DNA of 64,000 nucleotides. Origin: Leucoraja ocellata. Lineage: Eukaryota. The notes beneath the pieces were generated by a model. That model saw nothing but the letters and a program-made list of their open reading frames with translations, did not search any database and was not told where the DNA came from. The position numbers and the translations under genes are program-made. The stretch's first letter is position 1. Each line of letters begins with the position of its first letter. Where the stretch lies: NCBI GenBank assembly GCA_036785375.1, contig JAWMAR010000008.1:11966001-12030000 (forward strand), read 5' to 3'. This document shows, piece by piece, positions 20,265-64,000 of this stretch.

Positions 20265-21200
20265 GACGCAGAGCTGGAGTAACTTAGGGGGTCAGATAGC
20301 ATCTCTGGAGAAAATGAATTGGTGACGTTTTGGGTTGCAACGCTTCTTCAGACCGAGTCAGGGGAAAGAGAGATATAGATAGTGTTATAAAGAGATATAG
20401 AGCAAATGAATGAAATGTGCACAAAAGTAACGATGATAAAGTGAGCAGGCCATTGTTGGCTGTGGCCTATGTTAAACTCAATAAGAATTGACACTAGGAC
20501 AACGACGGGTGGGGGAGGGACGGAGAGAGGGATACATGGGTTACCTGAAGTTAGAGAAATCCCTATTCACACCATTAGGTTGTTAGCTGCCCAAGCGAAA
20601 TATGAGGTGTTCCTCCAATCTGCGTTAGGCCTCACTCTGACAATAGGGGAGACCCAGGACAGAAACGTCAGCGTGGGAATGGGAAGGCAGGCCCAGGCAG
20701 ACTGGGCAAAGGGGTTCAGCAAAATGATCGCCTCGCCTAGTTTTGGTCTAGCAGATGTACAAGGGTCCACACCTTGAACGACTGATACAGTGGATGAGGT
20801 TGGAGGAGGTGCAAATGAATATCTGCCTAACCTGTAAGGTGTGCTGGGGTCCCTGGACAGAATCAAGGGATGAGGTAAAGGGTCAGGTGTTGCATCTCCT
20901 GCGGTTGCAGGGGAAGATACCTGGGGAGGGGGTGGTTTGGGTGGGAAGGGATAAGTTAACCAGGTTGTTGCGGAGGAGAAGATGGGAAGATGTGACTCGT
21001 GGTGGCATCCCGTTGGAAATGAAGAAAATGTGGTTGCATGCGATGGCTGATGGGGTGAAGAGTTAGAACTACCCAGTTGCGACTAGGGGGAGGGAGAGCA
21101 AGAGCGGAACTGCGGGGTACCGAGAAGGCACCTGTGAGGGCCTCGTCCTACGAGGAATGAGGAACATCTCGGATGTCCTGGTATGGAACACCTCATTTTG
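20265..21200 (-). mobile_element. Decayed Penelope-like retroelement 3' part (GIY-YIG endonuclease remnant plus 3' repeat)
   Basis: Minus strand reads ...GPLYIC*T... (degenerate YIG) and PSHSHADVSVLGLPYCQSEA*RRLEEHLIFRLGS*QPNGVNRDFSNFR*, typical of vertebrate Penelope C-termini. Followed by ctgaagaag...aaaacgtcacc...ccagagatgct. Confidence 0.85.
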
Positions 21201-21912
21201 GGCCCTCTCAGCTGCAGAGCCCTCTCCTGCCTAACTGCCTGGGCCTCCTGCCCACACCCTCCATCTGCGAATTATGCCTCTGGGCTGTGTTCCCTCTGAC
21301 TCACTGTCAGTTGTTCCCGGAGCCGCGCCGAGAGGGGCGGCTCACAGCGTCAACAAACAAAGTCATCTGCAGCTGAGCCTGACGTATTCCCCCAGCCCAG
21401 CCCCAGCCCCAGCCTCAGCCCAGCCGAACAACACAACACGATCTCAACCCAGACTCCTCATTCACAACGACACCCTGCCGCATTTTAAAGAACCAATCCC
21501 AGGGAACACGGGGCAAAAATAACACCGCTGGAAATCTGAAATAGAAACTAACTAACTGCCTTCAATTCTCAACCGGCCGGGCAGCGCCTGTGAGGAGAGA
21601 AATCTTCCCGTTCCGATGAAAAGTCTTCACCTAAAACATTTCGCTCTCCACAGATGCTGTCCGGCCTGTTGCATGTTTTCAGAATTTTCTGCTGTTAATA
21701 CAACTCCGGGAATAAATAACTGATTCTAACATTCAAACCGATCATAACCAATCGAACCAGCGACGAACTACACCGAGTGCTCTCTAACTAACCAGGGGCT
21801 AACTATATCCCAACGCTCTACAACTAACCGCTCTCCGACTAACCAGGGACTAATTAATTACAACCGCGAGCGCCCTAACTAACCAAAGTTTGACTGAAGA
21901 AGGGTCTGGAGT

Positions 21913-21940
21913 CTGAAGAAGGGTCTCGACCCGAAACGTC
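21913..21940 (+). ncRNA. Minimal hammerhead-ribozyme-like motif in a Penelope-derived repeat
   Basis: CTGAAGA-A-GGGT(CTCG)ACCC-GAAA-CG-TC: CUGANGA core, stem II, GAAA, palindromic ACGT and UC cleavage site. Activity untested. Confidence 0.55.
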
Positions 21941-22560
21941 ACCCATTCCTTCTCTCCGGAGATGCTGCTCCAGAGATCTCTCCATCTCTGAGTTACTCCA
22001 GTATTCTGTGTCTACCTTTGGCCAAACCTTTGTGTCTATCTCAGGGGCTAACTACACCCGACCGCCCTCCAACCAACCAGGGATTAATTACACCCACTGT
22101 CCTCTGGTTGGCGAGACTTTGCTGGGAACGTGCCTCGTATGATGGGGTGGCGGCTGCCCATGCCGGGGTTATGAAGAAACGTCACCCACTCCTTCTCTCC
22201 AGAGATGCTGCCTGTCCCGCTGTTACTCCAGCTTTTTGTGTCTATCCGGGGTTATGTGAAGCGGACTGGCCTTTTACCAGGTGACCCGGCCTTGGTGAGG
22301 TAGGTCGATGGCCCGGGCCTGTGCGACTGTGGCGCTCCGCTTCCCACTTCACTCGGGTACCAGCTTCCGAGCCCGCGCCGCCCACAAACCAAAGCAGGCT
22401 CTCGACTCGGGCCTCAGTCACGGCTTCGCTCGCTGGTCTGAACCGCACACCGAAACCCGAGCTCGGACCTAAACCCCTATAAATCCAGCCCAGCCGGAGG
22501 ATTCTTTGACTTTGACCAAAATGGCATCACGTTCCCTCGTTTCAAAGCATCAAACCTGGG

Positions 22561-22925
22561 CAGATGTTCCCTCAACCCGGCCAGGTGTTCCCTCAATCCG
22601 GCCAGATGTTCCCTCAACCCGGCCAGATGTTTCCTCAACCCGGCCAGGCGTTCCCTCAACCCGGCCAGGTGTTCCCTCAACCCGGCCAGATGTTCCCTCA
22701 ACCTGGCCAGGTGTTCCCTCAACCTGGCCAGGTGTTCCCTCAACCCGGCCAGGTGTTCCCTCAACCCGGCCAGGTGTTCCCTCAACCCGGCCAGGTGTTC
22801 CCTCAACCCGGCCAGGTGTTCCCTCAACCCGGCCAGGTGTTCCCTCAACCCGGTCAGGTGTTCCCTCAACCCGGTCAGGTGTTCCCTCAACCCGGCCAGG
22901 TGTTTCCTCAACCCGGCCAGATGTC
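22561..22925. repeat. Homogeneous 21-bp minisatellite, about 17 copies
   Basis: (caggtgttccctcaacccggc)n. Generates the repetitive ORFs FPQPGQV / PGVPSTR / HLAGLRE. Confidence 0.97.
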
Positions 22926-24022: not shown

Positions 24023-25929
24023 GTGGGGTTTAGGCATGACTGGTGCGATGTGTTGTGGATGGGCTGAATCGACGGGATTTAGTGCGAATCTGGGTTTCAA
24101 AGGGTCCCAGCCTGTTTCGGACGCCAGCGTGTTTCAGGCGGGTGAATCAGCTCAGTGGGGAGTGGCTGTGTTTGTATGGGGAGGGCGGGGGGGAGGGAGG
24201 GCGGTGGGAGTGGGACATGGGGGATGCTCCCGACTTTCACGTCCTCTACAAGGCACCAAAGATGGTGTACAACAGGCGAGGTATCTTTATTTTGGGCGGG
24301 GCGGCGTGTACCCCAGCGTTTGATCAGCAAGACCCTACGGCGAGGCTGGGGTGTGGGCAGAGCAACGGCCCCGGCGAGGGTGAGAGCGGCGGTCTCGGTT
24401 CGCCCAGCCCCGGGAAGGCCGCACCTGCCGTGGAGTCCGCGGGCAGGGGCAGCTGAAACAGCGGCTCTGGTGCCGGAGGTCAGTGGGAACGTGATGGCAC
24501 AGCCTCGGCGACCAGACCGGTGCAGGTCAGGGCGGTGGGTGAGACGAGGAAGCAGAGTGTTCAATCTCAGGCGGGACAATGGGAAGCGGTTGGCAGATGT
24601 GACAAGAGGTGATGTCGAGAAGGCGGCGGGGAGCAGACGGCTCACAGTCGGTGCTGCTGCTGATTTACACCAGGTATTGATCGCCCAGGGACACGCTCTG
24701 CGGTGGCGATGCTCCATCTTCACAACATTTGCACCCACTCATCCATCACAACAGGAACAATAGCAGCGAGGTTGCTGCAACCGAGGGAACCTCCCCGCTG
24801 ACAATGACCCTGACCCTGACCAAACAATGTATCTGTACAGTTACACAGTGACCATCGCCCTGAACGAACGGAGAGGGGTGGGTGCAGCTGGGCACGAGGT
24901 TGTGCCCAGCACTAGTGCTAGACAGTGTTGCAGGTGATGATCCAACTCCACCACCAGCCTCCCGCCACGGACACAGAGCCCAAGCTGGCGGGCCCCAGTT
25001 GCCTGATGCTCTCTGCCCCAACACCACCACGTCTGGGCAGGCAGCCCAACATACTGGCTCTGGGAGGGGGACATGTCTATGTTTTGTATTGGGATGTGTG
25101 TGGAGCTGGTGGCTTGCATTCTCGGATGTCTCCCGAGGAATGTTTTATGGTGCTGAGTTGCAGGGCGAAGTGTTGGTTGAGATGCGATGTTGGTGATGAA
25201 TGCTCCTGCAGGAGCCTGGTGTGTGTGTGTGTGTGTGTGTGTCTAGTCTATCCAGCATTGGCACAGGCTGGAAAAGTCAAAGAGGAGCCAGTCCTGGGGT
25301 GTTGACTCGTATTCCGGTGGGCTTGAGGTTTGGAATGACTCTCACACTTCCTGTTGTGCAGAACACTCTGTTCTTTTAGCTCAAGACTTGTTGGCAAATC
25401 AGGTCTCTGGCTGGACGAATCCACTTCACATTCCAGAGAGATTTCAGCTGTCTGTTTGCAGTCACTGGTTACACCCTCTGCTACACACGCACCACTCTTG
25501 CTCCTCTGTCGTGTTTACACCAACAGTGCATCAGGATAGTTAGTGCTTGCAGAAAATCCTGTTCAGATCAGCTGGTGTGTTTGTGTCAAGCCGTACGTAC
25601 CAACTCTAAGGCGTGTGATGTGTTTGTTCCTGATCCTCTCCTTGCCAGCTGACGTGTCAATGGTGTTGTTATCGAGTTAAGCTGTATGGAAACAGACCAT
25701 TCGGCCCACCACGTCAATGCCAAGCAGTGGGCTCCGAAATCTCCCAGCACTTGACCCGTCGCCTTGAATGCATGGGCGATTCAGGTGGTATCCATGTACC
25801 TAAATGCTGTCAGTGACTCTGCTTCCAGCACTCTCTCTAGCAGTCTGAAGAAGCGTCTCGACCCGAAACGTCACCCATTCATTCTCTCCAGAGATGCTGC
25901 CTGTCCCGCTGAGTTACTCCGGCATTTTA

Positions 25930-27700: not shown

Positions 27701-29668
27701 ACATGTCTCAGAACACTTTCAGTCTCAGAACACTTTGACCCTGAACTCTCACTATTTCTCCTTTTAGGTAGTGAATTTTGGGGTGTGTTCATGCAAGGCC
27801 TACATGGCTGTCTGTGCTGGTTGTTTCCACTAGATTGCCCTCACTAGTGGGTCTGTGGGGGTATTTGAACAGGTCTTGTCAGCCAGCAGCAACACTTGTT
27901 CCCTTCAGCCTCTATCCACATTGTGCTTCTACAGGTGCCTGTTCACTCTTTATGGTAAGTCTGTGATGAGTTTGCAATAGATCTTGTACACACTCAAAAT
28001 ACGATTATAGAGAATGCAGTCACACTAGCTGGTGGGTATGTGGTACCAGATCTGTGCACTGTGTGCTAGAAAGATTTAAAGGGATATGGGCCAAACGTAT
28101 GCACGTGGTACTAGCTTAGATAAGACACCTTGGTCAGCATGGACTAGTTGCGCTGAATTGCCTGGTTCCATTACCTCTTGGAGTGTATTTCATTATTTTC
28201 CAAGGGCAGGTGAGTCTAGAATTGGAGGGCACAAGTTGAAAGTGAGAGTGAAGAATTTTAAAGGAGATCCGAGGGGCAATATTTTCACAAAGATAGTGGT
28301 GGTTATCATAACGGATGTGAGGAGAAAGCAGGAATGGGGAACTGATTCTGGAAGATCAGCAATGATCATATTGAATAGTGGTGCTGGCTCAAAGGACCGA
28401 ATGACTTACTCCTGCTTCTATTTTCTACGTTTATATAACACTGCCAGAGGAAGTAGTTGAGGCAGGTAGGAAAAACAGCATTTAAAAGACATTTGGACGT
28501 GCACGGGTATGAAATGTTTAGAGCTAAATGGGCCAAGCGCAGCAAAATGTGACTAGCATAAACAGGCATCGCAGCAAGCATAGACGAGGTGGGCCGAATA
28601 GCCTGTTTCTGCGCTGTACAGTTCTGTGATTCTATGCTGGTGTAATCTGACTGTGTTGGTACTGATCCCTGTTCACTAGACTGGCCTATGTGTGATGTCC
28701 CGGTACACACCTTGTTCACTCTCCTCCTCTTTCATGATGTGTCTCTGTGTTTGCACCAGGCTCTGTCACACTTGCCGTGTGATTGTGCCAACTGTATCCA
28801 AAGTGCACAGGCATGTCCCTACTCTGACCTTTGCCCCACGGTCATGATTCCGTCAGCCCCTTATTCTTTGCCCAACGGTTTACTGCTGCTGGCTGACCCC
28901 TCATCATCTGCTCCTCCTCAGTTAGTGGGAGTTCTCCCTCTCTGACATCAGCTCAGCCCCCAATGTCCCAGGGTCACCGGCCTGAGGCCACTAGTTGGAC
29001 ATCATCATTTCTGAGGTCAATGTTCCGGAATCACCATCCTAAGGTCACCAGCCCGGAGTCAACCGGATCACTCTGACCTCTTCCATCAAATGAGACCCAG
29101 AGTCTGCAGATGCTGGAATCTAGAACAAAACAAAGTACTGGAGGCACTCAGCAGGTCAGGCAGCATCTGTGGAGGAAATGGACAGATGGTATTTCAGGTC
29201 AGGGCTCCACACTGAGTGAAGGCTGTGACAAACTTGGCAAGTAACAGGTGGGTAAAAGTAAGAGGGGTTAGATTGGCAGATGAGTCCAGTGATTGGGGGG
29301 GGGGGGGGGGGATAGTGACCAAGTTTGAAAGGGGTTGTGGGGGGCAGTGAGGGGAGAGCAGTGTTGGAGGCAAGGGGTGGGGATGTAGGCAATTTCAGTG
29401 GAAAGTGAGTAGGGTCAGTTTCCTGGTGGGGTAGGGTGAGGGTGGATGAGCAATGATCGCTGAGCTTGGAGGGAGTAGCATCTGAGGAGAGATTGGGCCC
29501 AACTGGTAGTCTGGGTGCTCACAGTGAAGGGTGGGGGTGGGCAGTGTCTTTTCAGCTGCTGTATTTTGTGGAGATGGGAGTCCCTGTAGGGGGGTAGAGG
29601 GGTCTCTGGTGGGAAGGGGTTTTTACAGGGGAGAGGTCTCCACAGGGGAAGGGAGGTCTCTCTACGGT

Positions 29669-31135: not shown

Positions 31136-31494
31136 GGGTGGGAGCGACCCAGACTCCAGCGGGCCCGAGTTCCTGGAGGAGCTCAGGGAGGATTCCCCTG
31201 TCTTCATTCCGGCGGTGGTGGCGGCGGCTGGGCTCGACAGGGGCTCTCACCCGACAGTGTGGTTGGTGGCCAGTGACGGAGGACGGGTTCACTGCACAGT
31301 TCTCGGCAGTGAGCGTCGAGTAGTTGAAACGATATGTGGATCGTCCAAGCGGGGAAGGGGAAGGGGCCATACTATGGTCTGGATACATACATTGTCTGAA
31401 GAAGGGTCTCGACCAGAAATGGCAAATTTTCGTTTTCTCCAGAGAAGCTGTCTGACCCTGTCTGAGTTACTCCAGCCTTATGTGTATATCTTCA

Positions 31495-33270
31495 TACTGT
31501 ACCTGATATTGGGCAATAAGGCTGGCCAAGCCACCGGATATTCAATGGGGGAACATATCCCCAGGGATCATAACCCCGCATGACGGTTACGGATGAGGAC
31601 CTCAGAGGAAGTTCTAAATTGTGGGAGGATAATTACAACGGTATTAGACAGTTACTGAGAAAGTTGTTCGGAAGACTTCCATTGTGTAAATCCACATTTG
31701 ACATGTGGGATCCTCATAAAGACCAGGTGGGTGGCATTCAGGACCAGCATTTTCCTGAGAAGATAAAAGATAGAGATAGTAAGCTTGGATGACAAAAGAC
31801 GTTGTATGTTTAGTCAAAAAGGAATGAGAAATGTATATAAGGTTGAGCAGTTGAAATCGAACAAGGCCCTTGAGGTGTATAAAGGAAGCAGGAAAGAAGT
31901 AAGGTATCATGAGAGCTGGATGGAACATGAAATGTGCTTGGCAAGTGGAATTAAGCAATATCTCAAGGCATCTTATACATATATTATAAGTGAAAGGGTA
32001 GCTAGGGAGAGAGCAGATTCATTCAAGGATCAAAGAGATGAAATAATACAGTTAATGACAGGACCCTCTGAAGCAGGGGGATGTACAGGGGGATCTTGGG
32101 GTTCCTGAATGTGGCAACACAGTTGGCCGGGGTACAGAAGGTATACAATAGCTACTTCCCCACAGCCATCAGGCTATTAAACCTGGCTCTGATTATTAAT
32201 AACCCATTTTCTGTTATTTGCACTTTATCAGTTTATTTATTCATGTGTGTATATATTTATATTATGGTATATGGACACACTTATCTGTTTTGTAGTAAAT
32301 GCCTACTATGTTCTGTGTGCTGAAGCAAAGCAAGAATTTAATTGTGCTATACAGGGACACATGACATTAAACTCATTTGAACTTGTACTTGAACGAACTA
32401 CAGCATGCTTGCCTTCATCGGTTGGGTCATTGAGTTGAAATGTTAGCAAATCATTTGGCATAATGTTGTTGAATTGTTGAATACAATTTTGATTAGGCCA
32501 CTTTTGGAGTATTGTGTGCAGTACTGCTTGCTCTATTACAGGAAGGATGTGAAGGCTTTGGAAAAGGCGCAGAAGAAGTTCGCCAGGATGTTACCTGTAT
32601 TAGAGGGTATTAGCCATAATGGGAGGTTGGAAAAACATGGATTGTTTCCTGTGGAGCGTTGGAGGTTGAGGAGAGAGCTGATAGGAGTTTATAACATTAT
32701 CAGGGCATCACAAACATTCACAACCTTTATCCCATGACTAAAACTTGAAAAGCCAGAAGCCAAAGACACAAAACGCTGGAGTAACTCAGCGAGACAGGCA
32801 GCATCTCTGGGGGGAAGGAATAGGTGACGTTCCGGGTCGAGACCCTTCTTCTGACTGAGAAAGGTCTCGACCTGAAACGTCACCCATTCCTTCCCTCCAG
32901 AAATGCTGCCTGTCTCGCTGAGTTACTCCAGCTTTTTGTGTCTATCTTCCATTCAAACCAGCATCTGCAATTCCTTCCTACACAAAAGCTAGAGGCCATT
33001 GCTTTAGGGTGAGAGAGATAGGTTAAAGGTCTGCGGGGCAACGTTTTGTTTTTACACACAGACAGACAGAGTGGTGGGTGCCTGGAATGCGCTGCTATTG
33101 GAGGCAGATATGAAAGTGACGTTTAAGAAGCAACTAGACGAACAAATACATAAGGGAATAGAGGGATATAATGCAAACGTTGGAAGATGGTCTCAGATTA
33201 GATTGGTATCGTGTTCGGTATAGACATTGTGGGCCAAAGGACCCGTCCCTGTGCAATACTGTTCAGCGTT
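31495..33270 (+). mobile_element. Decayed CR1 LINE with nested insertions
   Basis: ORF LIRPLLEYCVQYCLLYYRKDVKALEKAQKKFARMLP...LEKHGLFPVERWRLRRELIGVYNII (CR1 ORF2 C-terminus). Interrupted by a Rex-like 3' end (~32130-32395) and a fold-back element. Confidence 0.8.
32763..32983. mobile_element. Penelope-derived fold-back element with imperfect 15-bp TSD
   Basis: Inverted arms around two opposed hammerhead-like motifs. aaaagccagaagcca (32748) and aaaagctagaggcca (32984) flank it. Confidence 0.8.
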
Positions 33271-33644
33271 CTATGTTCCACCCCCCCCCCCCCCCTCCCT
33301 TTCTTTTCCCCTCCATCCAAACCTTCTCTCCCCTCCCCTGCATCCGTCCCTTTTCCTCTCCATCAATCTGTTTCCTTCCCCTCCATTTGTCCCTCCTCTC
33401 CTCTTCCCCCCAACTCCGTTAAGCCCCCCTCTTGCGTAAATCTTATCCCCTCTCCCCCCTCTATCCATCCTACCTCTCCCCTCCCCTCCAGCCACCCCTC
33501 CTTTCCTCGCCCTCTCCATCCATCGCTCCTACGCTTCCACTTTCATATCCACCCCTGCCCCCCCATCCACTTACTCTCCCCAAGAATGGAGGCTGTGTTT
33601 CCGTGGCCAGGCCCGGTGGGGTCGGGACGGACTCCCTGGCTCAG

Positions 33645-33703
33645 CGACCATGGCTGTAGACTGTTACCACCCCGGACTCACAGTAACGATCTAAAGCCAC
33701 GGT
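33645..33703 (-). ncRNA. MIR132: pre-miR-132
   Basis: Minus strand: 5p ACCGUGGCUUUAGAUCGUUACU (33682-33703) and 3p UAACAGUCUACAGCCAUGGUCG (33645-33666, the canonical miR-132-3p). The arms form a hairpin. Confidence 0.97.
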
Positions 33704-34452
33704 CTCCGTGGGCAGGGCTGGTCAAGTCTCCCACTGCCTGGCCCAGGGCGGGTCACCTGAACCGCACAGTGACTGCACCTCCCACATCACCATTTCACCA
33801 ACCGAACCTCTCGCCACGTACACACCCACTCCAAACAAGGTAAGGGGTTGTGGGAACGGGCCAGGAACAGGGAAGGGGTGAATGATGAGATGATGCAGGT
33901 TGAGGGGAGGAATTGAGTGGATGGAGAAATTGAGGGAGGGTGTATGGGTGCGGTGTGGGCAGGGGTAGGTTGGGGAAGACGGGATGAGAGAGAGGGCTGG
34001 TGAGGATAAGACTGGCTAGGTGAGAATGGCACAGGGTGGGAATGGTGAGGGTGTGTGTGTGTGCTGAGGGGTTGGGTAGATGGGCCGGGATAAGGGTGAG
34101 GGAGAGAGGTGGTGAGCTTGGGAGTGGCTATGTGAGAGTGGGATGGGGTGTGGATGGTGAGAGGGGGGGGGGGGGGGTCGGTGCATGGGGTGGGGATGAG
34201 GGAGCAGGGTCGGTGGGGGACGCGAGGTGTCGACGGGGTGGGGAGGTGAGAGTGGGGTGGCGTGGGGATGATGAGGGTGTGTATGTGTGGACGTGGTGGG
34301 GAGGGGAGAGGGGGGAGGGTGGGCGGACAGGGTGTGGGAGCACGGTGGGTGGAGGACGCGGTGGGGTGGGGAGGTGAGGGTGGTGGCAGTGGGTGCTGAT
34401 GCTTCCCGTAGCACTGAGCGATGGACAGAACGGCGCATCCAAACAACATGGC

Positions 34453-34980: not shown

Positions 34981-35024
<44 letters not shown>

Positions 35025-35284
35025 CCCGTCCCCCAGTGGGGGCCAGTGTGTGTGTGTGACCCGTCCCCCAGTGGGGGCCAGTGTGTGTGTGGGACCCGTT
35101 ACCCAGTGGGGGCCAGTGTGTGTGTGGGACCCGTCCCCCAGTGGGGGCTAGTGTGTGTGTGGGACCCGTTACCCAGTGGGGGCCAGTGTGTGTGTGGGAC
35201 CCGTCCCCCAGTGGGGGCTAGTGTGTGTGTGGGACCCGTCCCCCAGTGGGGGCCAGTGTGTGTGTGGGACCCGTTCCCCAGTAA
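34981..35284. repeat. (GT)n microsatellite followed by a 35-bp minisatellite (~7.5 copies)
   Basis: (gtgtgtgtgtgggacccgtcccccagtgggggcca)n. An inverted copy lies at 34632-34676. Confidence 0.95.
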
Positions 35285-35551
35285 CCGCTGGAGGCGGGTT
35301 TATCTGTATTAAACCTCCATCTAACTGGCCCGCTGAGGCGGGTGGGCGAACGGCCCGGGAGCTGTATGAGGGTCTTGGTGATGCCGGGTCGAGTCGTCCC
35401 ACCCCCGTTGCATTCAGCTGCCGGTCTAGTCGCCCACGTGTGGGGATGGGGGCGGCAGACCGAAGGGGTGTTTGACTGCTCCCGGCGCTGCTCTGCTCTG
35501 CAGGGTCGGTGTGCCCACGGCGGCTCCTACTGCGGCTTGTGTCAGGCTCCA

Positions 35552-35610
35552 GTAGCCATGACTGTAGACTGTTACCCGGTAGCGCACAGTAATCAGTCCA
35601 CAGCCAAGGT
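35552..35610 (-). ncRNA. MIR212: pre-miR-212
   Basis: Minus strand: 5p ACCUUGGCUGUGGACUGAUUACU (35588-35610) and 3p UAACAGUCUACAGUCAUGGCU (35554-35574, fish-type miR-212). Lies upstream of miR-132 in transcript order, as in other vertebrates. Confidence 0.96.
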
Positions 35611-35619
35611 CTCGGCGGC

Positions 35620-35724
35620 TGACGCGCTCCCTCTGACGCAGGCGGGGGCGGGGGGTAAACCGCTCGCACATCCACGGCCTGACGCAGCGACTCTCGGCCA
35701 ACCGGCGCCTCGCTGCCTCCGTCA
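35620..35724. promoter_or_regulatory. CRE half-site cluster and EGR site just 5' of pre-miR-212
   Basis: TGACG at 35620, 35634, 35680; CGTCA at 35720; GCGGGGGCG at 35642-35650. The locus is a known CREB target in mammals. Confidence 0.65.
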
Positions 35725-39548: not shown

Positions 39549-39764
39549 NNNNNNNNNNNNNNNNNNNNNNNNNNNNNNNNNNNNNNNNNNNNNNNNNNNN
39601 NNNNNNNNNNNNNNNNNNNNNNNNNNNNNNNNNNNNNNNNNNNNNNNNNNNNNNNNNNNNNNNNNNNNNNNNNNNNNNNNNNNNNNNNNNNNNNNNNNNN
39701 NNNNNNNNNNNNNNNNNNNNNNNNNNNNNNNNNNNNNNNNNNNNNNNNNNNNNNNNNNNNNNNN
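39549..39764. other. Assembly gap (216 N)
   Basis: Run of n. Confidence 1.
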
Positions 39765-43500: not shown

Positions 43501-45871
43501 TGTTCCAGTAACAGGGCCTGACATGTAGGGCATTTCCGGCAACCCTGCATTTCCCAGTTTTGGCATTCCCATGTGTTTTTTCTCTCTCACAGAGACTCCA
43601 TTCAACTAACTCCATCAATAACTTGCCTCTACGCTCACCCAATAAGAGGTATTCAAGCTGAACTGTTTCAGATATACGACTTGGAATGGTGCCCTGCTTC
43701 TCCGTCCATAGATGTTGCCTAACATGGTGAGTAGACTATTCGGCCCTTCTCGCCAGACTATTATTGAATAAGACCTTTGTGATCGGGATGGGAACCGGCG
43801 GGCCAGGAGCCGATAGCGGGGCGGGGTAGAGCAGCCGCGCTAAGGTTGCGGCAGCCTCGCCTCCGGCACTGGGCTTCTTGTCCCCATGAAGCCGCGCCTC
43901 GCCCTGCTCTCAGCTGGGCTCTGGAGCATCGAAGAGGACATGTAGGGGCGAGGGTTGCTTCCGTAAGGAGAGGAAAGTGAGGCGAGAAACAGCGTCATTC
44001 AGCCGCAGACCGAATCAATCCCCACTCCACCCCTCCCCTGTTGTCAAAATGGTCTGTGGGAGTGTTGCACCACGCGAGCCCGACCCCGGCCATAGTATAC
44101 ACGGTGCCCCGCGGTTTCCCCGCGCCCGGGCCTGGGGCCATGGAGCTGACGGCAACACCCCATGCGTTCATCTCTCCAGAATCGCCATTCCCGCATCCCG
44201 AGGTGGGACATATTCAGAGATTGACTTGAACCGCAGGTCCTGACCCGAAACGTCGCCTATCTATATTCCCCCGTGATGTCGCCTGACCCATTAAGTTACT
44301 CACGCATTCTGTGTCATTTTTTTGTAAATCGGCAGCTGCAGGTGTCGTTTCTCTACATGTGGGGTGCGGGCCGCGGGCGGGCAATCCGCCACCTTCCGTG
44401 GATGCGTTGAAACCATGTTCACAGGGAGCTGGACTTCAGTCCCTGCCCCTACCCCCGCCCGCCCCGCTCTCACCTGGTGAGGCCCCTGCTCCCCGTCTCC
44501 TTTCAAAGCCGGTGAGACTTGTAGCAGACTTCCTTCTGGGTGGTAAGGACAGGTGCGACGTGAGGCTGATATCAGGGAGCTGATGGGGAGAAGGTTGGGC
44601 TGCGTTGGTTGCTGGCGAGGAGAAGGTGGATTGGATTGTCCCTGCACTCACACGGGTTGGAAGGAACAGACTGATCTTGTAACATGCGCGTTTTAGGTTT
44701 GACAGAGTAAATGTTGAGGAGAAGAGGAGGTATTCCCCATGAATGTTCCCTGTTAGTGATCCGTTCGTTCGTCAGACGCACAGTCCCGCTTCCCGGCTAC
44801 AGACAGTCCTCTCTCTGTAGTGAGCTCTTCACCCTCCTCTTCCCCTCCAACCTGCGGTCCCGTGTCAAATGACAATGAAGTGTTGGTCGGAGGTGGCGCC
44901 GTGTCCTCGCCTGCTTCCCTGGGCAGCTTGAGCTGCATTTTATCTGGGTCTGGCGATTTACTCACTTTTGAAAACCCACTGCCGATATTTCCAAGGACAT
45001 TTCGCACGGTGGCTCCTGTTTCTCTCTCTACGGACGCTGCCCAGCGTGGTGAGTAAGCCATTCGGCGCCTCCCGCCGAACTATCACTGTGTGAGATTTGA
45101 CCGCCTCCCCATTGACTCCGTGAATCTGCGGTCGTGGCGGGGTTCTATCTCAACATCGATCCCCGCGATGGCGGGGGACACCGGCGGACCAGGGGACGAA
45201 TGCGGGACGGGCTGAGAAAGCAGACCCAAATAATGTATTGAGGGTCACACCCATGTCTTGCCTCCATATCCGGGTTGCGCTTTGCTCTGCTGGTCACTTC
45301 TATTCCTCTTTAATCCATTTGCCCTTTATACACTAAAACTAACACCGGGTTTCTCTGAATCTACCAGCCAGCTTGCTGTTATCCTCGGGCTTTGAGCGCT
45401 GTTGAGCTCAGCTCCTCATGGAGTCTTTTTTGGAGAGTGAGGAAATCGGAGCACCCGGGGAAAACCCACGCAGTCAGAGAGAACGTACAAACTCCCACAG
45501 ACATCGAACCACTGTGCCTCCCTTAGTGGAATGTTAGGGACCTGGGGGGGGGGGGGGGGGGGGGGGGGGGCTGTGTGGCGACCTTGGAGAATCTGGGGTA
45601 CCGGGCAGTCCAGTGATGTGCCGCTGGGCCGTGACTGAGATGCTGGGCCGGGTCTGCGCTGCCGGACCGGGACTGAGCCGCCGAGCTGGGATCAACTGTG
45701 TGGAGAGGTCCACGCGGAGCATTGAATCTCTCACCCGATGCCAGGAGACGGGAGTCTCTCTCGCGATTTGTGAAACAGGGAAACCGCAAGGGACTGCGAA
45801 CTGAAACAGTCAGATATTTACTGCAAAATACTCAAACCATTACTTTCTAAAACTTCGTGCTTTGATTTCGT

Positions 45872-45899
45872 CTGAAGAAGGGTCTCGACCCGAAACGTC
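45872..45899 (+). ncRNA. Minimal hammerhead-ribozyme-like motif, second intact copy (a third at 50180-50207 on -)
   Basis: Identical CTGAAGAAGGGTCTCGACCCGAAACGTC. Confidence 0.55.
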
Positions 45900-47049
45900 A
45901 CCCATTCATTCTACCCAGAGATGTTGCCTGACCCGCTCTGAGTTACTCCAGCACTTTGTGTCTATCTTCGTTGTTTGATTGCTTAAAACGATGCTTGAAG
46001 ACGTTTATTAAATATTTATTGTTTATACTTTCTTTTAAGTTTTGAAAAGTTTCTCAACGTTTTGGAAACAGCCAGATTTCAAAAGATTTGAACCATTGGT
46101 AGTTCAATCTGTGTTTTTTGGTGTTTCATTTCACGAATGCATGTTCAGAAGTTATTTGAGTAGAATTAGGCCATTCGGCCCATCGCTTCTACTGCGCCAT
46201 TCAATCATGGTCGATCTCCGCCTCCTGATCCTATTTTCAGCCTTCTCCCCATAACCATTGACACCCGTTGTAATTGGTCTATCTCTGTCTTAAAAATATC
46301 CACGGACTTGAGGTGCACAAGATCATAAGAAGAATAGCTCGGGTAATTCACAGTATTTTACCCAGAGTAGGAGAATCGAGTACCAGAGTACAGAGGTTTT
46401 TGGGTGAGGAGGGAAAGACTTAATAGGAATTTGAGGGGTAACCTTTTCACACAAAGGGTAGTGGGTGGATGGAACAAGCTGCCACAGTGGGTAGTTGAAA
46501 CTTGTACTATCGCAACGTTTAAGAAACATTTTGACCTGTACAGTGATAGTACAACTTTTGAGGGATATGGGCCAAATGCAGGCACGTGGGACTAGTGTAG
46601 ATGGGGCATGTAGGTCGGCGTGGGCAAGTTGGGCTGAAATACCTGTGTCCATGCTATAGGATTCTACGACTCTATGACTAAGGTATATATATATATATAT
46701 ATATATATAAAGGAGGTGGATATATAGATTAGACTGCAGACACTTTCTCTGTATTAGAGCTAGCTAAAACTGAATCACAGGGATTTTGGGCAATGGGCAA
46801 GAGATTTGGAGAGGATCCAAGAGGAACCTTTTCATCTAGAGAGAGCCAGATTCATTTTACAGAAGGTCACACCTTTGGCAGGCAGGCCCACGGCACAGAA
46901 AGAGAAATGTTCTTCCTCTTTACCACTATACTTCTTCAAATGCTATGCAAAAGGAATAGCCAAGAAAGTACACCAATGCCTCTACTTACCTGCGAAGACT
47001 TGGGAAGTTCGGCATGTCCCCAATAAACTCTTACCAACTTGTACAGAAT

Positions 47050-48790
47050 GCGCATTTTATCGGGATGCGCTCATCGTTGCTACGTTGTACTGCTTCTCTT
47101 TTATTTTTATACTGTCCATGACGTCCCTTGTCAGCCACGGTTGCTCCTTACTCCCCTTGGAATCTTTCCTCCTCCTAGGAATGAACTGATCCTGCACCTT
47201 CTGTATTATTCCTAGAAATACCTGCCATTGTTGTTCCACTGTCATCCCTGCTATGTGTATCTTTCCAGTCAACTTTGGCCAGCTCGTCCCTCATGGCCCC
47301 AAAGTCTCCTTTGTTCAACTGTAACACTGACACCTCCGATCTATCTTCTCCCTCGCCAATTGTAGATTAAGCCTGACCATATTGTGGTCACTACCTCCTA
47401 ATGGCTCATTAACCTCGTTCCTTTATCAAATCCGGTTCATTACATAACACTAAATCCAAAATTGCCTTCTCCCTGGTAGGCTCCAATACAAGCTGCTCGA
47501 AGAATCCATCACGCACTCTACAAAGTCCCTTTCTTGGGGTCCAGTACCAACCTGATTTTCCCAGTCTACCTGCATGTTTAAATCTCCCATAACAACCACA
47601 GCATTACCTTTGCTCCATGCCAATTTAACTCCTGATTCAACTTGCACCCTATGTCCAGGCTACTGTTTGGGGCCGGTAGATAAGTCCCATCAGGGTCTTT
47701 TTACCCTTACAATTCCTTAGTTCTATCCATACTATATAACCATATAACCATATAACAATTAGAGCACGGAAACGGGCCATCTCGACCCTTCTAGTCCGTG
47801 CCGAACACGTATTCTCCCCTAGTCCCATATACCTGCGCTCAGACCATAACCATCCATTCCTTTCCCGTCCATATAACTATCCAATTTATTTTTAAATGAT
47901 AAAAACGAAACTGCCTCCACCACCTTCACTGGAAGCTCATTCCACACAGCCACCACTCTCTGAGTAAAGAGTTCCCCCTCATTTTACCCCTAAACTTCTG
48001 TCCCTTAATTCTCAAGTCATGTCCCCTTGTTTGAATCTTCCCTACTCTCAGTGGGAAAAGCTTATCCACGTCAACTCTGTCTATCCCTCTCATCATTTTA
48101 AAGACCTCTATCAAGTCCCCCTTAACCTTCTGCGCTCCAAAGAATAAAGTCCTAACTTGTTCAACCTTTCTCTGTAACTTAGTTGCTGAAACCCAGGCAA
48201 CATTCTAGTAAATCTCCTCTGTATATACTGTATACTGACTCCACATCTCCTGTTTGAATGTCACCCCTTGCAAGGGACTGAATTTCATTCCTCACCAACA
48301 GAGCTACCCCACCCCCTCTGCGCACCTGTCTGTCTTTTCGATAGAAGGCATACCCTTGAATATTCAGTTCCCAGCCCTGGCCCTCTTGCAGCCATGTCTC
48401 TGTAATTTCGACAACATCATACTTGCCAATTTCTAACTGAGCCTCAAGCTCGTCCACTTTATTTCGTATACTTCGCGCATTTATATACATAGAAACATAG
48501 AAACATAGAAAATAGTTGCAGGAGGAGGCCATTCGGCCCTTCGAGCCCGCACAGCCATTCATTGTGATCATGGCTGATCGCCCCCTATCTATAACCCGTG
48601 CCTGCCTTCTCCCCATATCCTTTGACTCCACAAACCCCTAGAGCTCTATCTAACCTCTCTTAAGTCCATCCAGTGACTTGGCCTCCACTGCCCTCTGTGG
48701 CAGGGAATTCCATAAATTCATAACTCCCTGGGTGAAAAAGTTTTTTCTCACCTCAGTCTTAAATGACCTCCCATTTATTCTAAGACTGTG
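47050..48790 (-). mobile_element. CR1 ORF2 endonuclease region with two CR1 3' ends (47735-48222 nested; 48487-48790 abutting)
   Basis: Minus ORF YINARSIRNKVDELEAQLEIGKYDVVEITETWL...RKDRQVRRGGGVALLV and VVVMGDLN (APE-type endonuclease). The 3' ends carry (GGTTATAT)n and (TTTCTATG)n tails. Confidence 0.9.
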
Positions 48791-50062: not shown

Positions 50063-50104
50063 TCACACTCACACTCAGGCTCACACTCACGCTCGGCTTG
50101 TAGA

Positions 50105-50590
50105 AACAAAGAACTGATAGAGATAAAGTGCTGCAGTAACTCAGCAGGTTAGGCAGCATCTCTGAGAAAAAGGATGGGTGACGTTTCGGGTCGGGACCTT
50201 TCTTCAGGCCGAAGGTGGCGGGGAGGGAACTGGAGGGACCCTTTACTTTCAGTCTGAAGGATCCTGACCTAAAACGTCACCACCATTTTGCTTCAGAGAT
50301 GCTGCGTAAATCCACCAAGTTGTGTCTATCTTCGGTATAAACCAGCATCTGCAGTTCCTTTCTACACAAAGAACTGCAGATGCTGGTTAAAACACAAAAG
50401 GGCACAAAGTGCTGGAGTAACTCAGTGAGTCAGGCAGCATCTTTGGAGAATGTGGATCGGTGACGTTTCGTGTCGATATCCTTCTTCAGACATTCTTCAA
50501 AAGAAGGACCCAATACGTTACCAATCCACATTCTCCATTAATGCTGCCTGACCCGCTGAGTTACTCCAGCACTTTGTGTCCTTTTGCATA
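50105..50590. mobile_element. Two adjacent Penelope-derived fold-back elements (another cluster at ~51815-52240)
   Basis: Paired arms gtaactcagc...gcagcatc...gtgacgtttcg and aacgtcacc...gatgctgc...gagttactccagc. Confidence 0.75.
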
Positions 50591-51395: not shown

Positions 51396-53967
51396 AATGA
51401 AGTGAGAAGAGTTTGTCTGTTCGCTACCTGACTGAGTCTGACTCAAGCTTGATGTTCGAGGCATAGAGTTGTACAGCACAGAGGCATGCCCTTCGGCCCA
51501 TTACGCCCATGCTGACCGTTACACTGACTCATCTGACCTCATAAAGCTATGTAAAATCATGAGGGACATAGATTAGGAAAATAGTTACAATGTTTATCCA
51601 AATGATAGGAGAGTATAAAACTAGAGGGCATTTAAGGTGGGAGGGGAAAGAATTTAAATGTGGGCCAGAGGGTTTTTCACAAACGGGGTGGTGGATATGT
51701 GGATGTAGCTGCCAGATAAAGTGGTAGAGGTGGATGCACTTGTGTGGTTTAAAAGGCATGTATGGATAGCAATAATTGAGGAATACGAACCAAACACAGG
51801 CAAGTGGGAATAAAAGGAACTGCAGATACTGGTTTACAAAATAAGATACAAAGTGCAGGAGTAACTCAGCAGGTCAGGCAGCATCGGTGAAGAACATGGT
51901 TGGGTGACATTTTGGGTTGAAATGCTTCTTTAATTTTAAGAAAGACACAAAGTGATGGAGTAACTCAGTGGGTCAGGCAGCATCACTGGAGTGAAGAAAT
52001 ATGTGACATTCTGGGTCAAAACCTTTCTTCAGTCTTCTTCAGGGTTCCAACCCGAAAGGTAGTCCCTTTCTCCAGAGATGCTGCCTGATCCACTGAAATA
52101 CTCCAGAATGTCGTGTCTATCGTTGGTAAAAACCAGCAGTTACTTCCTACACATTCAATCTGAGGAAGATGTCCTGGCCCAAAACGTCAAGTATCCATGT
52201 TCTCCAGAGACCCGCCGTGTTACTCTAACACGTTGTGTCACAAGCCAGTGGGACTAGCTCAGGTAGCCAACTTAGTTAGCATGGAAGAGTTGGACCGAGA
52301 GATGCACCTCCATGCCTATGATTCTGTACTTGTCTCAATTACCACCATAGCCTTGGCGATTCCAGTGTTCAACTAGATACTTCTTTAGTGTTGAGATAGT
52401 CTCTATGTGCCTTCAGTTTCCAACCATTCTCAGATCTCTAACATGTCCTGTTTGGATCAAGTCAAGTTTGTAAAAAAATCAGAGCGGGGGATCGCCCCAG
52501 CTGAGTGGTCTACCCAATTCGGAACAACTTGCCCAATGATAACACGCGTTCAGTGTTAGTTGTTTGAGATGGTTAAAGTATCAGTGATTCGTGGTTTAGA
52601 CGGCGTTGTGTCTGGGACAATCTCTGAGTCTCGGGACTTGGATCAACTCTTCAAGTCTCAAGTTTCTCTTTTGCTCAGGATTCATGCATCTGCATTCTCA
52701 TGCGTCCAGTTTGTCATCCGTTCAATAATCCACCATCTAGACTCATGCCTCCAGTTCGTCTTTTGCTCGGGATTCCGGCATCTGCAGTCGTTTCAGACTT
52801 TTGGTCATAAAATAGATGGTGCTGCCGAATCAGATAAGTACTGCCACACAGATGCTCCATGCTGTTGGAGGGGGGGGCGGTGAGTGAGGGAGCCCCACGC
52901 CGAGGGAGGGGTATAGCCACGAATGTTCCATGCAGTGGGGGGGGGGGGGGGGGGGGGGGCGGGCGCTGTGTCCTAATGGCTTATTATTGTCATGTGTACC
53001 GAGGTACAGTGAAAAATAAATGCCCATCAAATCATGCGTATGTCAGGTAGTGCTAACGGAATGCAGAATGTAGTTACCGCGTTATAGCGGTTCAATTACG
53101 GATAGACTTACAGAGAAAGTTCCGACAGTTAAAAACGTGCAACAACCAGTCAGGGATAAAATTAGTCCCCCCCCCCAGACCAATGTTAAGTGTAGAATGG
53201 GGTGGATGGGATGGGGATGGGGAAGGGGGGGGGGTAGTTTGAGTGATGGACTGGGCTGCGTCAACTCGCTGCAATTTATTGTGGTCATTGACAGTTGTCA
53301 AACCAAGTCGTGATGCATCTGGCAGAATGGTTTCTCTGGCACATCCGTAGAAGCTGGTAAGAGTTATTGGAGATATGCCAAACCTCCTGAGTCTAGAGAA
53401 GAAGGAGGGGCATCGGGGGTGCTTTCTTGGCCGTTGTGTTATTGTGGTTGGACCAGAACAAATTGCTGGTGTTAAGCCCAGGAACTTAAAGCTCCCAACC
53501 ATCTCCACTTTAGCACCACTAATGCTGATCGAGGCATGCCTGACCTGACGTCAATAATATGATCTTTCGGCTCTCTGACATTGAGGTAAAATGTGCGGGG
53601 ACCGTTGCTCGGTGCTGTTTCCGCGCTGCATCTCTAAACATACATATATATATATAGATATAGATATATATATATAGAACTTGTTTTTGTTTATTATATT
53701 AATTACAGATTGTGTTGTGCTGCTGCAAAGTAAGAATTATTTTGTTTCTGTCTGGGACATATGACAATCAACCACTCTTGACTCTCTGAACTGTTGCCAA
53801 GTCAGTTCGTAGCGCTTTGGAAATCCCACCACAACCTAAAGCCAGTCACCGCTGAACGGAATTCCCATGGTAGACGAGCAGCCGGCGAGAGTCCGTGTTC
53901 GCACTCAGTTGTCGATGATCACACACACCTCACCCGCCCACTGATTCTCCCACTCCTCTCTCATCAC

Positions 53968-54167
53968 NNNNNNNNNNNNNNNNNNNNNNNNNNNNNNNNN
54001 NNNNNNNNNNNNNNNNNNNNNNNNNNNNNNNNNNNNNNNNNNNNNNNNNNNNNNNNNNNNNNNNNNNNNNNNNNNNNNNNNNNNNNNNNNNNNNNNNNNN
54101 NNNNNNNNNNNNNNNNNNNNNNNNNNNNNNNNNNNNNNNNNNNNNNNNNNNNNNNNNNNNNNNNNNN
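53968..54167. other. Assembly gap (200 N)
   Basis: Run of n. Confidence 1.
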
Positions 54168-58549: not shown

Positions 58550-59027
58550 GTAAGGGCTGGGCAAGGGGGGGTTGAATATGGAGGTGGCGGGGAGAGGAAA
58601 GATGGATAATGAGAGGGTGGGGGTGTAGTCATCAACGTGATCTTATTCATTAAAATGTGAAGAAACAACTGATGTGTTGGTCACCATGTCCAACGAGCAC
58701 TATCCCTGCCCTGAGAGCGAGCATCACTATGTCTGACCCCGGGAGTGTGTGATGGGACAGTGTAGAGGCAGCTTCACTCTGGGTCTCGCCCACTATCTCC
58801 TTCCAAACAATTTTATTGAATGTAATTCGTAAAAAAGTCCAGACCAAGCTCTTTTGCCTTTTTATTTCCTCCACCTCTTTGTCCTGGTTGGTCTGAAAAT
58901 AACTGAGCTACCTGCTGTCATTATGTGAAGCTGGTCTTACAAATTGTTCTTATTGAGTCATGCTGAGGTGTTCCATGAATCCCATTGAGCATCAGGGCTC
59001 AGAGGTAATAGTGATCTTACTCCTGTT

Positions 59028-59218
59028 TACGAAAGAACTGCAGATGCGGGAGAAATCGAAGGTAGACAAAAATGCTGGAGAAACTCAAGGGAGTGAGGCA
59101 GCATCTATGGAGTGAAGGAATAGGTGACGTTTCGGGTCTCGACCCGAAACGTCACCTATTCCTTCGCTCCATAGATGCTGCCTCACTCCCTTGAGTTCTC
59201 CAGCATTTTTGTCTGCCT
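59028..59218. mobile_element. Near-perfect Penelope-derived fold-back element in a TSR1 intron
   Basis: ~77-bp inverted arms centred on gggtc-tc-gaccc (59134-59145). Flanked by gtgatcttactcctgtt (59011) and gtgatcttactgctgct (59219). Confidence 0.85.
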
Positions 59219-61016: not shown

Positions 61017-64000
61017 AGTGTGAGGACAGCATTGATATGCAGGAGGTGGCGATGGACTAGAGTGAGCACCAGCAGTTTGGAGTCTGTGCCTTTATATTAA
61101 AATGTTACTGTTAGCCACCCTCTGAATCCTGTTGGTGTGCCAATGCCCCGAATGCACTGCGATGTCTGGAGCCGTGTTTTACCTGTGAGGAGATTACTGC
61201 AGTTCCCAGGCCCTGCCACAGGGAGTCAGTGATGTGCTGTTGATGGAATGTGTGCTGCTGGAACCTGGGCTGTGACTCATAGTAACCACAGTCCTTCCCA
61301 CGATGTGCTCCCTTTCCAGATACTCCTTTCCTTCTTCAGGCTGTTCCTCGCCTGGTGTAGTTCCAGGGAGTAGGAAGTGGGTGTGTGCTGCTTGACTTTA
61401 TTGCCTAACGTACAGGCTTGGGAATGCTGGTGTTTGTGTCTGTAACAGGGGCCCAAGGCCACGCACATGCAGGGCTGTCTGTCTGTGTTTCAGCAGGGAG
61501 TGTACGAGGTGACATGAGTGAGAGCGGGGACGGGTACAGTGTGGCAGTGAAGAGAATTAAACCATGACCCATTCAGTGGTTGGGTTATGTCCGAGCTGAT
61601 CTCTGCATGCCACAAAGCAGCATCCAGGGGGAGAGGGAGTGGGAATCCCATTCATACACCTAACCTGGAGACTGTCCTGTCGGTCTCCAGCCACAGTGAA
61701 AACTCTTTTCCAGAACTCCGAGTTGTGCCCACTTCCTGCCCACATGACCCGTTCCCCTTGTGGTTTGGACCGGGTTTCACTGTCTGGTGCCACGCCCGTC
61801 CATTCAGAGCCCCAGTGATTGCACTGTGGATGGCAAGGGGTGAGTGCAGTGAGCTGTTCTCACCCTCTGTGGCCAGTGCCAGGCTGGGAGGAACAGCTTC
61901 TCTGCGAAGGGGCAATGAGCCTGCGCTGCACAGCAGGTGAAGGTGGGCGGGAAGATTGGGCTAAACGTGTTGCCCTGACAGAACAAGCATTGCTTTGGCT
62001 GGAACGTTAAGGGTGCCCCTGCTGAATGTTCCTGAACTCACTTCAGCATTGGGCGTGAAACAGTATGATGACACCTCCTAATGTCAAGGGTTTGCTGCAC
62101 GTCTCACACACCCTCACACCACTGCATGCTGCGCATGTCCAACCCCTGTGTCTAAACTCAGTTTCTGAGCACCCCATCATCTGCACAAACTAAGCAGAGT
62201 GTTGCGATACAGGATCAGGCCCTTTGGCCCACCGGGTCCATTCTGGCCACCATGTGCAGATTACACTGATCCTGTATTTGCCCCCATTCTATTCCTCCCG
62301 CATCTCACCAACTCCCCCAGATGTCCTGCGCACACACCAGGGGCATCTTTACTCATCCATCCACATGGATTTTGGGATGTGGGAAGGTAAATCAGAGCGG
62401 AAGGGGGAGGGGGGGGGCTGAAGAGGGGAACAGCCAAGTGGTCACAGGGAAAACACGGAACAACACACGAGCAGGCCCTTCGGCCCACTATATCCGTGCT
62501 GAACATGGCACCAGGTTAAAACGATATCAGGCCGGCACAATCCAGGTCCTAAAAATGCTGATGGTGAAGGGATTGGGAAGAGCATTGGGGTTTGGGGGAC
62601 AAGATGGGCGAACAGGGTTTGCCTTTGAACAGTTAGTAAAGGGACAAGGTCGGTTCACGATGATCTGTACGGAAAGCACGGGTTGAGCAATGACTGGAAC
62701 GCACCTACTTATAACGTTACTGGAGGAGTGATCTGCCAGAGGAGCCGTGCTGTCAGCACCATTCCCCCCACCACCGGGCTCTCGCACGCACACGCACACA
62801 CACGCCCCTCAATGCCACTTGGTTCTTTTGCCAGCGCCAACACTCGGGACAACTCGAGGTCCACAGGCGCAGGTCGCACACAGCCCGGGGCAGCAGCACA
62901 AACCGCTGCAGGGGTGGCAGTCTGTGTTGGAGGATTGGCCGATCTGAACCCGGCACCGCCCTGCACAGTCCCAGGAGAGCCATTCAGCATAACGGGCCGA
63001 GGTTTCATATTCTCTTTGTTGCAGAAGCAGGGCCAGTTTAAGAGCCGCAGTGACCCAGAGCTGGCCCCTGGCTGGCAGCTTGGAAACACCCTGACGTAAA
63101 CAATTAAACTCAGCCTGACCTGTCTGAGCCTCCGTGCGATGCCAAATAAACTGCCTGGCCTCGATCACCTTACTTGCTGTCAGCAAAGGGAGGAAAATAT
63201 GAAAGTAATCAGTAATTATTTTGGGAGCCAGCGTTACCAGACTAGATGCCAGCTGACATCGATTCAAGCACATAGGCCCTCGCTTAAGTGAAGCTCGCAA
63301 CATGTACTGAGTAACTGAAGAAGCGAAAAGTCACGGATCAAACAGGGCAAAGAGAGGGAAAGAGAATGAGCTGGAAGGGAGAATTACAGATGGTGGACAT
63401 CTGAAATAAGAACATATTGCGGGTGAGGGTCGATATGTGTAGCAGTGGCAGAGAGGGAGGAGGTGAAGCCCGATGAAGCTGCCTTCAGTGAGGGTTAGAA
63501 CACAGAGGAAAGCGCTCTGTCTTAGCAGCTGGCAGAGCTACTGCCTCACAACACCCGAGACCCGGGTTCGATCCTGAACTCGGGTGCTTTCAGTGTGGAG
63601 TTTGTCCGTTCTCCTTTGACCGTGTGTGACCCTTTCACTGGGAACATCTACAGTGGCAGTGACTTTGCATTTGCTCACGTTTCCTTACATGATAGAAGGC
63701 CATTCGGCCCGTTGAGCATGTGTCAACTCCCAGAGCAATCACATTCCCTTGCCAACTTCTGTGTAGTCTTTCTCAATTGCCCAGGTTCGCTTTGAAATTT
63801 TCCCCTCTCACAATAAACATGAGCTCTTTAGTTTTGGACTCTCCTACCCAGGGACAAAGACTGGCCATCCGATTTTATGATCCTGTCTTCAAGAAGGAGT
63901 TGCAGATGCTGGAAAATCGAAGGTACACAAAAATGCTGGAGAAACTCAGCGGGTGCAGCAGCATCTATGGAGCGAAGGAAATAGATAACGTTTCGGGCCG

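Follow-up and report, generated by a model that had tools for sequence, protein, structure and literature searches.

A dispersed repeat of Leucoraja ocellata, probably the pseudo-LTR end of a Penelope-like retrotransposon, carries a sequence-complete minimal type I hammerhead motif

Minimal hammerhead ribozymes of metazoan Penelope-like elements (PLEs) have been a published class since 2014 (PMC4209133). Their recurring features include a base between positions 9 and 10.1, a G10.1-C11.1 pair and palindromic positions 15.2-16.2, and the consensus in Fig. S3 of that paper includes stems I of 2 bp in Culex, D. virilis and Oikopleura. According to the published model, two motifs pair through ACGU, which serves as stem III, and cut after GUC (PMC4209133, PMC6765202). 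In the anole Poseidon element PAc, a pseudo-LTR hammerhead is followed by an optional tail and the insertions keep uncut sequence; this hammerhead cuts only with its protein, while ribozyme mutations left insertion in vitro unaffected and a search for RNA ends at the cut site found none (PMC11167929). In addition, type I hammerhead units that go back to PLE pseudo-LTRs have been described as animal non-LTR retrozymes, including in the one chondrichthyan genome sampled, and one of nine Xenopus dimers tested was cleaved (bioRxiv 10.64898/2026.07.22.740005).

The motif reported here lies in a 64-kb window, that is, the whole stretch of Leucoraja ocellata DNA that was analysed. It shares with the metazoan PLE motifs of PMC4209133 the type I topology, CUGANGA with one unpaired base, G10.1-C11.1, GAAA, the palindromic 15.2-16.2 without loop III, the GUC site, the short stem I, the position 3' of the endonuclease and the occurrence as mostly solitary, dispersed copies. 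It fits the Fig. S3 consensus, and its segment lengths and geometry are those of the Acropora Neptune row, whereas stem II has 4 bp compared with 7-8 bp in S. mansoni, and stem I, with 2 bp, stands at the low end of the range given there. An earlier, preliminary description of this DNA had raised as caveats an extra A after CUGANGA and a stem I of only 2-3 bp. The first is a base of the published consensus; in the second the lengths were right, but they are no anomaly, since 2-bp stems I are listed in the same source (PMC4209133).

The other two systems resemble the locus in part. PAc belongs to the Poseidon clade, its active protein has been purified and cleavage with the help of that protein has been shown (PMC11167929), whereas the window holds only a dead Neptune-like remnant. 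Unlike the non-LTR retrozymes, the window copies are dispersed monomers, inverted pairs and short tandems with broken motifs (bioRxiv 10.64898/2026.07.22.740005); two or more successive units whose hammerheads are complete, as expected of a retrozyme, were found nowhere in the window, as the motifs are broken in the tandems 51930/52029 and 52041/52167 and the duplicate at 21894 lacks GAAA. No cartilaginous fish was seen in Table S1 or Fig. S3 of PMC4209133, and no published description of this chondrichthyan hammerhead family was found in the literature searched, which included these two items. With this family the 2014 class gains a skate- or ray-type, very high-copy member whose stem I lies at the lower extreme of length. 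Together with the near-identical invertebrate Neptune motif, it makes a natural test pair for the purpose of PLE hammerheads and for their need of the element's protein. The present data give no support to a host function.

The motif and its copies in the window

The 28-nt motif has seven matches with three or fewer mismatches in the window, a number reached in none of 100 shuffles, in which the maximum was 0, and a strict descriptor was matched at two places compared with none in 100 block shuffles. The motif forms only the 5' end of a repeat unit of about 90-140 nt. In self-comparison no other interspersed repeat of the window is as deep as this hammerhead-headed one (depth up to 24, compared with 8 for the highest listed segment elsewhere), in agreement with the earlier claim that it is the commonest short repeat. 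A profile search found 32 copies of the repeat in the 64 kb and none in the reversed window; each copy named in the preliminary description is real, including all the degenerate ones (with position 31395 corrected to 31396), but its list was an undercount.

A copy was scored as complete if it kept the core, GAAA, UH and the 15.2-16.2 pair, had four pairs in stem II with G10.1-C11.1 among them, and had a stem I of at least 2 bp. All scored features are kept in only two of the 32 copies, those with exact 28-nt motifs at 21913(+) and 45872(+), and the CUGANGA...GAAA...UH core is complete in 2 of 32 copies as well as in the column consensus. A third copy that had been called intact, at 50180-50207(-), has lost stem I and bears two mismatches, one of which, G10.1>A, disrupts the G10.1-C11.1 pair; intactness thus holds for the first two only. 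The copy at 25845, previously termed nearly intact, indeed differs by a single change, G10.2>C, a stem II mismatch. Stem I has 2 bp in both complete copies and in the common form, which has an A-C mismatch at 2.3-1.3, and 3 bp at 20351(-) and 17754(+). No tandem pair of intact or complete motifs occurs within the window. The features are listed in Table 1, among them a partial duplicate at 21894-21907 that the interval of the preliminary description, starting at 21893, takes in.

Table 1. Positions of the hammerhead motif, of selected repeat copies and of the Penelope-like remnant in the window
Feature	Position	Strand	Remarks
Sequence-complete minimal type I hammerhead	21911..21942	+	Based on sequence, descriptor and published consensus
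Stem I of this motif	21911-12/21941-42	+	2 bp
Core C3-A9 of this motif	21913-19	+	Unpaired A at 21920
Stem II of this motif	21921-24/21929-32	+	4-nt loop; G10.1-C11.1 is G21921-C21932
GAAA of this motif	21933-36	+	Followed by palindromic 15.2-16.2 CG (21937-38) and UC (21939-40)
ACGU palindrome	21936-21939	+	Helix III absent
Predicted cut site	between 21940 and 21941	+	
Partial tandem duplicate of motif 5' half	21894..21907	+	14 nt; core and 5' arm of stem II, without GAAA
Whole dispersed repeat copy (PLE pseudo-LTR fragment)	21910..22018	+	Small internal insertion; tail absent
Second copy with sequence-complete motif	45870..45968	+	C3 at 45872
Near-complete copy	25841..25928	+	G10.2>C breaks one stem II pair; reference for public-contig comparison
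Repeat copy at 3' end of Penelope-like remnant	20266..20355	-	Motif 20324-20351; 3-bp stem I, G12>A, G10.2>C
Spacer (3' UTR/pseudo-LTR), stop codon to C3	20352..20540	-	189 nt; pyrimidine-rich 3' end
Decayed Penelope-like ORF C-terminus	20541..21197	-	CxxxxCxx(C) linker and GIY-YIG endonuclease; several in-frame stops, frameshift
Four damaged copies in two head-to-head pairs	50104..50585	both	50204-/50256+ and 50486-/50504+; includes the copies earlier placed at 50180 and 50462
Head-to-head pair of damaged copies	32764..32984	both	Plus-strand copy bears optional 3' tail
Two head-to-tail pairs joined head-to-head	51814..52239	both	51930-/52029- and 52041+/52167+; 4/4 motifs broken
Head-to-head pair inverted within self-complementary stem II	59025..59214	both	Long near-perfect hairpin; 5' core absent

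The near-perfect hairpin at 59081-59199 produces below-threshold Rfam miRNA matches and could form double-stranded RNA if transcribed.

Element of origin and independent relatives

Read through its stops, the minus-strand remnant (Table 1) contains a Cys-rich linker and a GIY-YIG-type C-terminus. A full HMMER scan with it found 687 relatives, the best named protein matches being from Leucoraja and Hypanus, a skate and a ray. Among the relatives are proteins of 813-891 aa with RT and, C-terminally, a GIY-YIG domain (12 of the 150 listed matches were domain-scanned); one of them, P0072, scored above both Pfam cut-offs and most other scanned relatives fell below. The window itself holds the C-terminal remnant only, RT and GIY-YIG both being present in the full-length relatives. 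The remnant gave no Pfam match, a word-indexed protein search recognized it in 0 of 15 candidates, and PDB sequences gave no recognition. Its linker reads CNRRRCNTx, and a Cys-rich, Zn-finger-like linker is conserved in alignments A1 and A3. Such a linker before the endonuclease is a trait of the Neptune clade, shared with Nematis (PMC8557442), and because it precedes the endonuclease here, the element of the remnant was probably of Neptune type.

The preliminary description had placed one repeat copy directly 3' of this remnant and had derived the repeat from a Penelope 3' end. Both claims held: one of the 32 copies, with its motif at 20324-20351(-), follows the GIY-YIG remnant 189 nt past the stop codon (this copy carries G12>A), and the derivation is in line with the position after the ORF, the PLE-type insertions and a homologous motif in relatives. 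Seven head-to-head junctions occur among the window copies, short tandems are also present, and in 12 of 30 copies the score for a tail passed the cut-off, which was at times reached by shuffled controls as well. PLEs have been described to insert head-to-head or as partial tandems and to bear an optional tail of 30-40 bp (PMC8557442, PMC3846280), and the junctions and tails found here agree with them. In public contigs of four runs from four organisms, 140,320-163,237 matching records were found per run, inverted and tandem joints included; these records are not copy numbers, but they indicate that the repeat family is very abundant. A search for RNA data sets containing the stretch listed none, a result with no bearing on expression. 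As a separate observation, in four of six folded tail-bearing copies (32883-32982, 50365-50461(-), 29095-29185(-) and 63890-63986(-)) an internal conserved block and the tail formed a helix of 8-9 bp, which by this folding is a candidate site for protein binding or for the start of reverse transcription.

Independent evidence came from metagenome loci chosen by their endonuclease protein only, of which the best 80 of 523 were used. A homologous motif was found in 58 of these 80, and among the 64 loci with at least 250 nt downstream the strict motif lay 98-150 nt past the protein match in 18, compared with 0/64 on the antisense strand and 0/64 after shuffling. Between the window and a relative motif, 11 of 11 core positions are identical compared with 12 of 23 other positions (Fisher p 0.006), and the 3' flank agrees at only 8 of 37. 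Two pairs, one per stem, have changed in a compensatory manner, namely 2.2-1.2 (G-C in the window, C-G in the relative) and 10.4-11.4 (U-A versus C-G); this test is one contrast of two lineages, the descriptor for pairing had selected 18 of the 24 rows in it, and its 0/500 shuffles cannot be read as a probability. A covariance model for which only 17 relatives were used ranked window copies as the top seven of 22 hits, with a best E of 0.0005 under rough calibration, and detected the 21911..21942 motif at E 0.0067. In sixteen of the 58 relatives, position 4 is C (CCGACGA) and the motif lies about 100 nt past the protein match; they apparently form a subfamily with a changed core. The exact degenerate pattern matched 0 stretches in metagenome contigs, viral contigs yielded no confirmed relative (0/2 and 0/22 candidates), and Rfam reported no hammerhead among 11 matches on the window.

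These results led us to assign the repeat to a Penelope-like retrotransposon, probably of Neptune type, as its pseudo-LTR end, and to see in the motif the minimal type I hammerhead of that element; we give this full explanation a probability of roughly 0.85. That the motif is a PLE minimal hammerhead is in itself highly probable. The earlier reading of the motif as a minimal type I hammerhead whose palindromic stem III is ACGU agrees with the published consensus, with the same motif in relatives and with the descriptor, which matched in 0 of 100 shuffles.

Folding, decay and competing explanations

In predicted folds of both complete copies the hammerhead is the minor form, with a stem II probability of at most 0.22 (21913) and 0.14 (45872) in 21 of 21 folding frames each, and an alternative helix usually wins. 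In the monomer the 5' arm of stem II mostly pairs with the bases just 3' of the cut site, and the double hammerhead is calculated at -6.1 kcal/mol versus -24.4 for two monomers, in a model without tertiary contacts. The monomer is thus predicted to be an inactive hairpin and the dimer weak, so that unaided cleavage would be unfavourable and the protein of the element would probably be required for any cutting. We rejected a selected off-switch as the role of the inactive hairpin: for 14 of 15 copies, over 5% of the 3' segments paired equally well after shuffling, and the fifteenth stood at 5%. The competing helix does not exceed shuffled ones in strength and is therefore no evidence for a designed switch.

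The duplicate at 21894 can extend stem I. In one test the structure of minimum energy resembled a hammerhead in two of two frames, and in a separate calculation the dimer with the duplicate stood at -33.1 versus -41.2 kcal/mol. Activation of the 21913 copy by this duplicate was nevertheless weakened as a candidate, since the fold wins in 0 of 21 other frames and depends on the frame ends, with a z of 0.15 against shuffles.

What fits best is protein-assisted cleavage in the source element together with silent dispersed copies. In an active tandem element RNA, as the literature would have it, two motifs would pair via ACGU and form the missing stem III, each core would cut the partner motif after GUC, and the element's own protein would probably be required to refold the RNA. 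The dispersed copies of 90-140 nt would be short reverse-transcription products of uncut RNA, as we infer from the retention of sequence 5' of the cut site, and would then have decayed neutrally. The 21913 copy, although sequence-complete, is most likely silent in place. We lean towards the view that the motif of the source element cleaves under some condition, and regard meaningful cleavage at the 21913 locus as very improbable.

The dispersed copies look like neutral relics. Among 16 window copies covariation is absent, 270 of 500 shuffles reaching the score; the check on stems I and II that the preliminary description had proposed thus gave a divided answer, with two compensatory pairs between lineages in a single contrast and none above shuffles within the window. 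Conservation of the core was assessed in 27 of the 32 copies, five poorly aligned ones being left out. G12 is altered in 8 of 27 copies, a rate like that of other CpG columns, and the non-CpG 3' core is changed in 10 of 108 cells, compared with 84 of 824 in the conserved downstream blocks (p 0.87) and 211 of 1321 at all downstream positions (p 0.07, marginally better kept). An earlier test in favour of preferential core conservation (12/179 versus 126/873 non-CpG cells, p 0.005) was dropped as biased, because its 18 of 32 copies had been picked for having the 5' core. In public contigs, G12>A accounts for about 4-8% of depth, G16.2>A for 8-13% and changes at a downstream CpG for 9-10% (40 of the 73 rows, none of them 5' of 25864). 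The preliminary description had named lack of preferential core conservation across copies as an observation against the hammerhead. The window copies indeed lack it, whereas between lineages the core is kept at 11 of 11 positions; a copy-level test is not valid here because dispersed copies decay neutrally after insertion, and such decay leaves the hammerhead reading standing because it is the source elements that are under selection, not the fragments that have been inserted.

The strongest competitor accepts the descent from a PLE hammerhead and takes the motif to be catalytically dead even in source elements, where it would be kept as promoter or initiator, as protein-binding site or within the start of an ORF. 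The 2-bp stem I, the dominant alternative fold and the weak dimer would all be expected of such a relic, as would the retention of sequence 5' of the cut site and the absence of that site among the 5' loose ends listed in the public contigs (six per run). Anole ribozyme mutants that still insert in vitro, with no RNA ends at the cut site (PMC11167929), and Naiad PLEs that thrive without canonical hammerheads (PMC8557442) point the same way. However, distant lineages keep both stems and all 11 core positions next to an unrelated 3' flank, 2-bp stems I occur in other PLE motifs (PMC4209133), and the anole motif does cut when its protein is present (PMC11167929), so that we consider a dead relic possible and yet unlikely.

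It has even less in its favour to suppose that host transcripts are cut by complete dispersed copies such as 21913, each paired with another copy in cis or trans, with stem I extended by the 21894 duplicate in the case of 21913. Two complete motifs do occur within 64 kb, the public contigs hold 140,320-163,237 records per run in four runs (again no copy number), and with the duplicate the hammerhead-like fold had minimum energy in both frames of one test while the dimer gap shrank to -33.1 versus -41.2 kcal/mol. Against this, the fold depends on the frame ends (stem II at most 0.22 in the 21 others, z 0.15), G12 is changed in 8 of 27 copies, complete motifs are never in tandem, and no host exon was found nearby, the Pfam search matching one of 148 frames with a LINE-type endonuclease; activity of this kind appears most improbable. 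That the hammerhead likeness is a chance property of an abundant non-ribozyme repeat might be suspected from the shortness of the motif, the missing Rfam hammerhead match and the missing covariation within the window. This suspicion is contradicted by the descriptor, with 0 matches in 100 shuffles, by the same placement relative to the endonuclease in relatives, by the core identity and compensatory pairs between lineages and by the top ranking of window copies under a model from relatives alone, which leaves it a negligible likelihood.

Copy edges and other features of the window

In most copies with a 5' core, unrelated flanks begin within about 4 nt of C3 and not at random points of the 3' UTR, and the commonest 5' loose ends among those listed in the public contigs are at 25841-25843. 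Most copies have CAGT just 5' of the core, and a pyrimidine tract (at least 21 in 26 nt) lies upstream in only 3 of 17 copies. TCAGT before the core resembles the initiator consensus, its A being position 2.3 of stem I. At 20541-20547(-) the end of the ORF, CAG/GTAA, resembles a splice donor, and there is a pyrimidine tract ahead of the motif at 20352-20380(-), so that an intron or an initiator-like start is possible. In D. virilis, helix I marks the end of an intron (PMC4209133), and an initiator-like TCACT has been described in rotifer pseudo-LTRs (PMC3846280). A 3' splice site, with its pyrimidine tract and CAG, would explain the copy edge just as well as a transcription start at TCAGT; AG is absent at the corresponding place in the related loci.

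One speculative and rather improbable extension is that the 5' end of the Penelope transcript has been copied to extreme abundance as a SINE-like unit. Its transcription would start at TCAGT and its reverse transcription at the tail, about 100-140 nt further downstream. In that case the promoter would have worn stem I down to 2 bp, making the hammerhead a switch able to cut only once the protein refolds it. If this were true, there would be, by extrapolation, many thousands of sequence-complete motifs able to cut host RNAs upon expression of the element.

The window contains further features apart from the repeat. Assembly gaps (runs of N) occupy 39549-39764 and 53968-54167. An open frame at 48182-48637(-) matches Pfam Exo_endo_phos (E 7.9e-06) and is probably a LINE endonuclease remnant. 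A young tandem array at 22553-22924 (21-nt unit, 17.7 copies, 94% matches) is open over long frames on either strand. At 33635-33713 and 35543-35620 on the minus strand, two precursors of the Rfam mir-132 family scored above the gathering score (72 and 61.8 bits) and are consistent with a miR-212/132 pair. Another young tandem array, at 35011-35282 (35-nt unit, 7.8 copies), lies between these two miRNA precursors.
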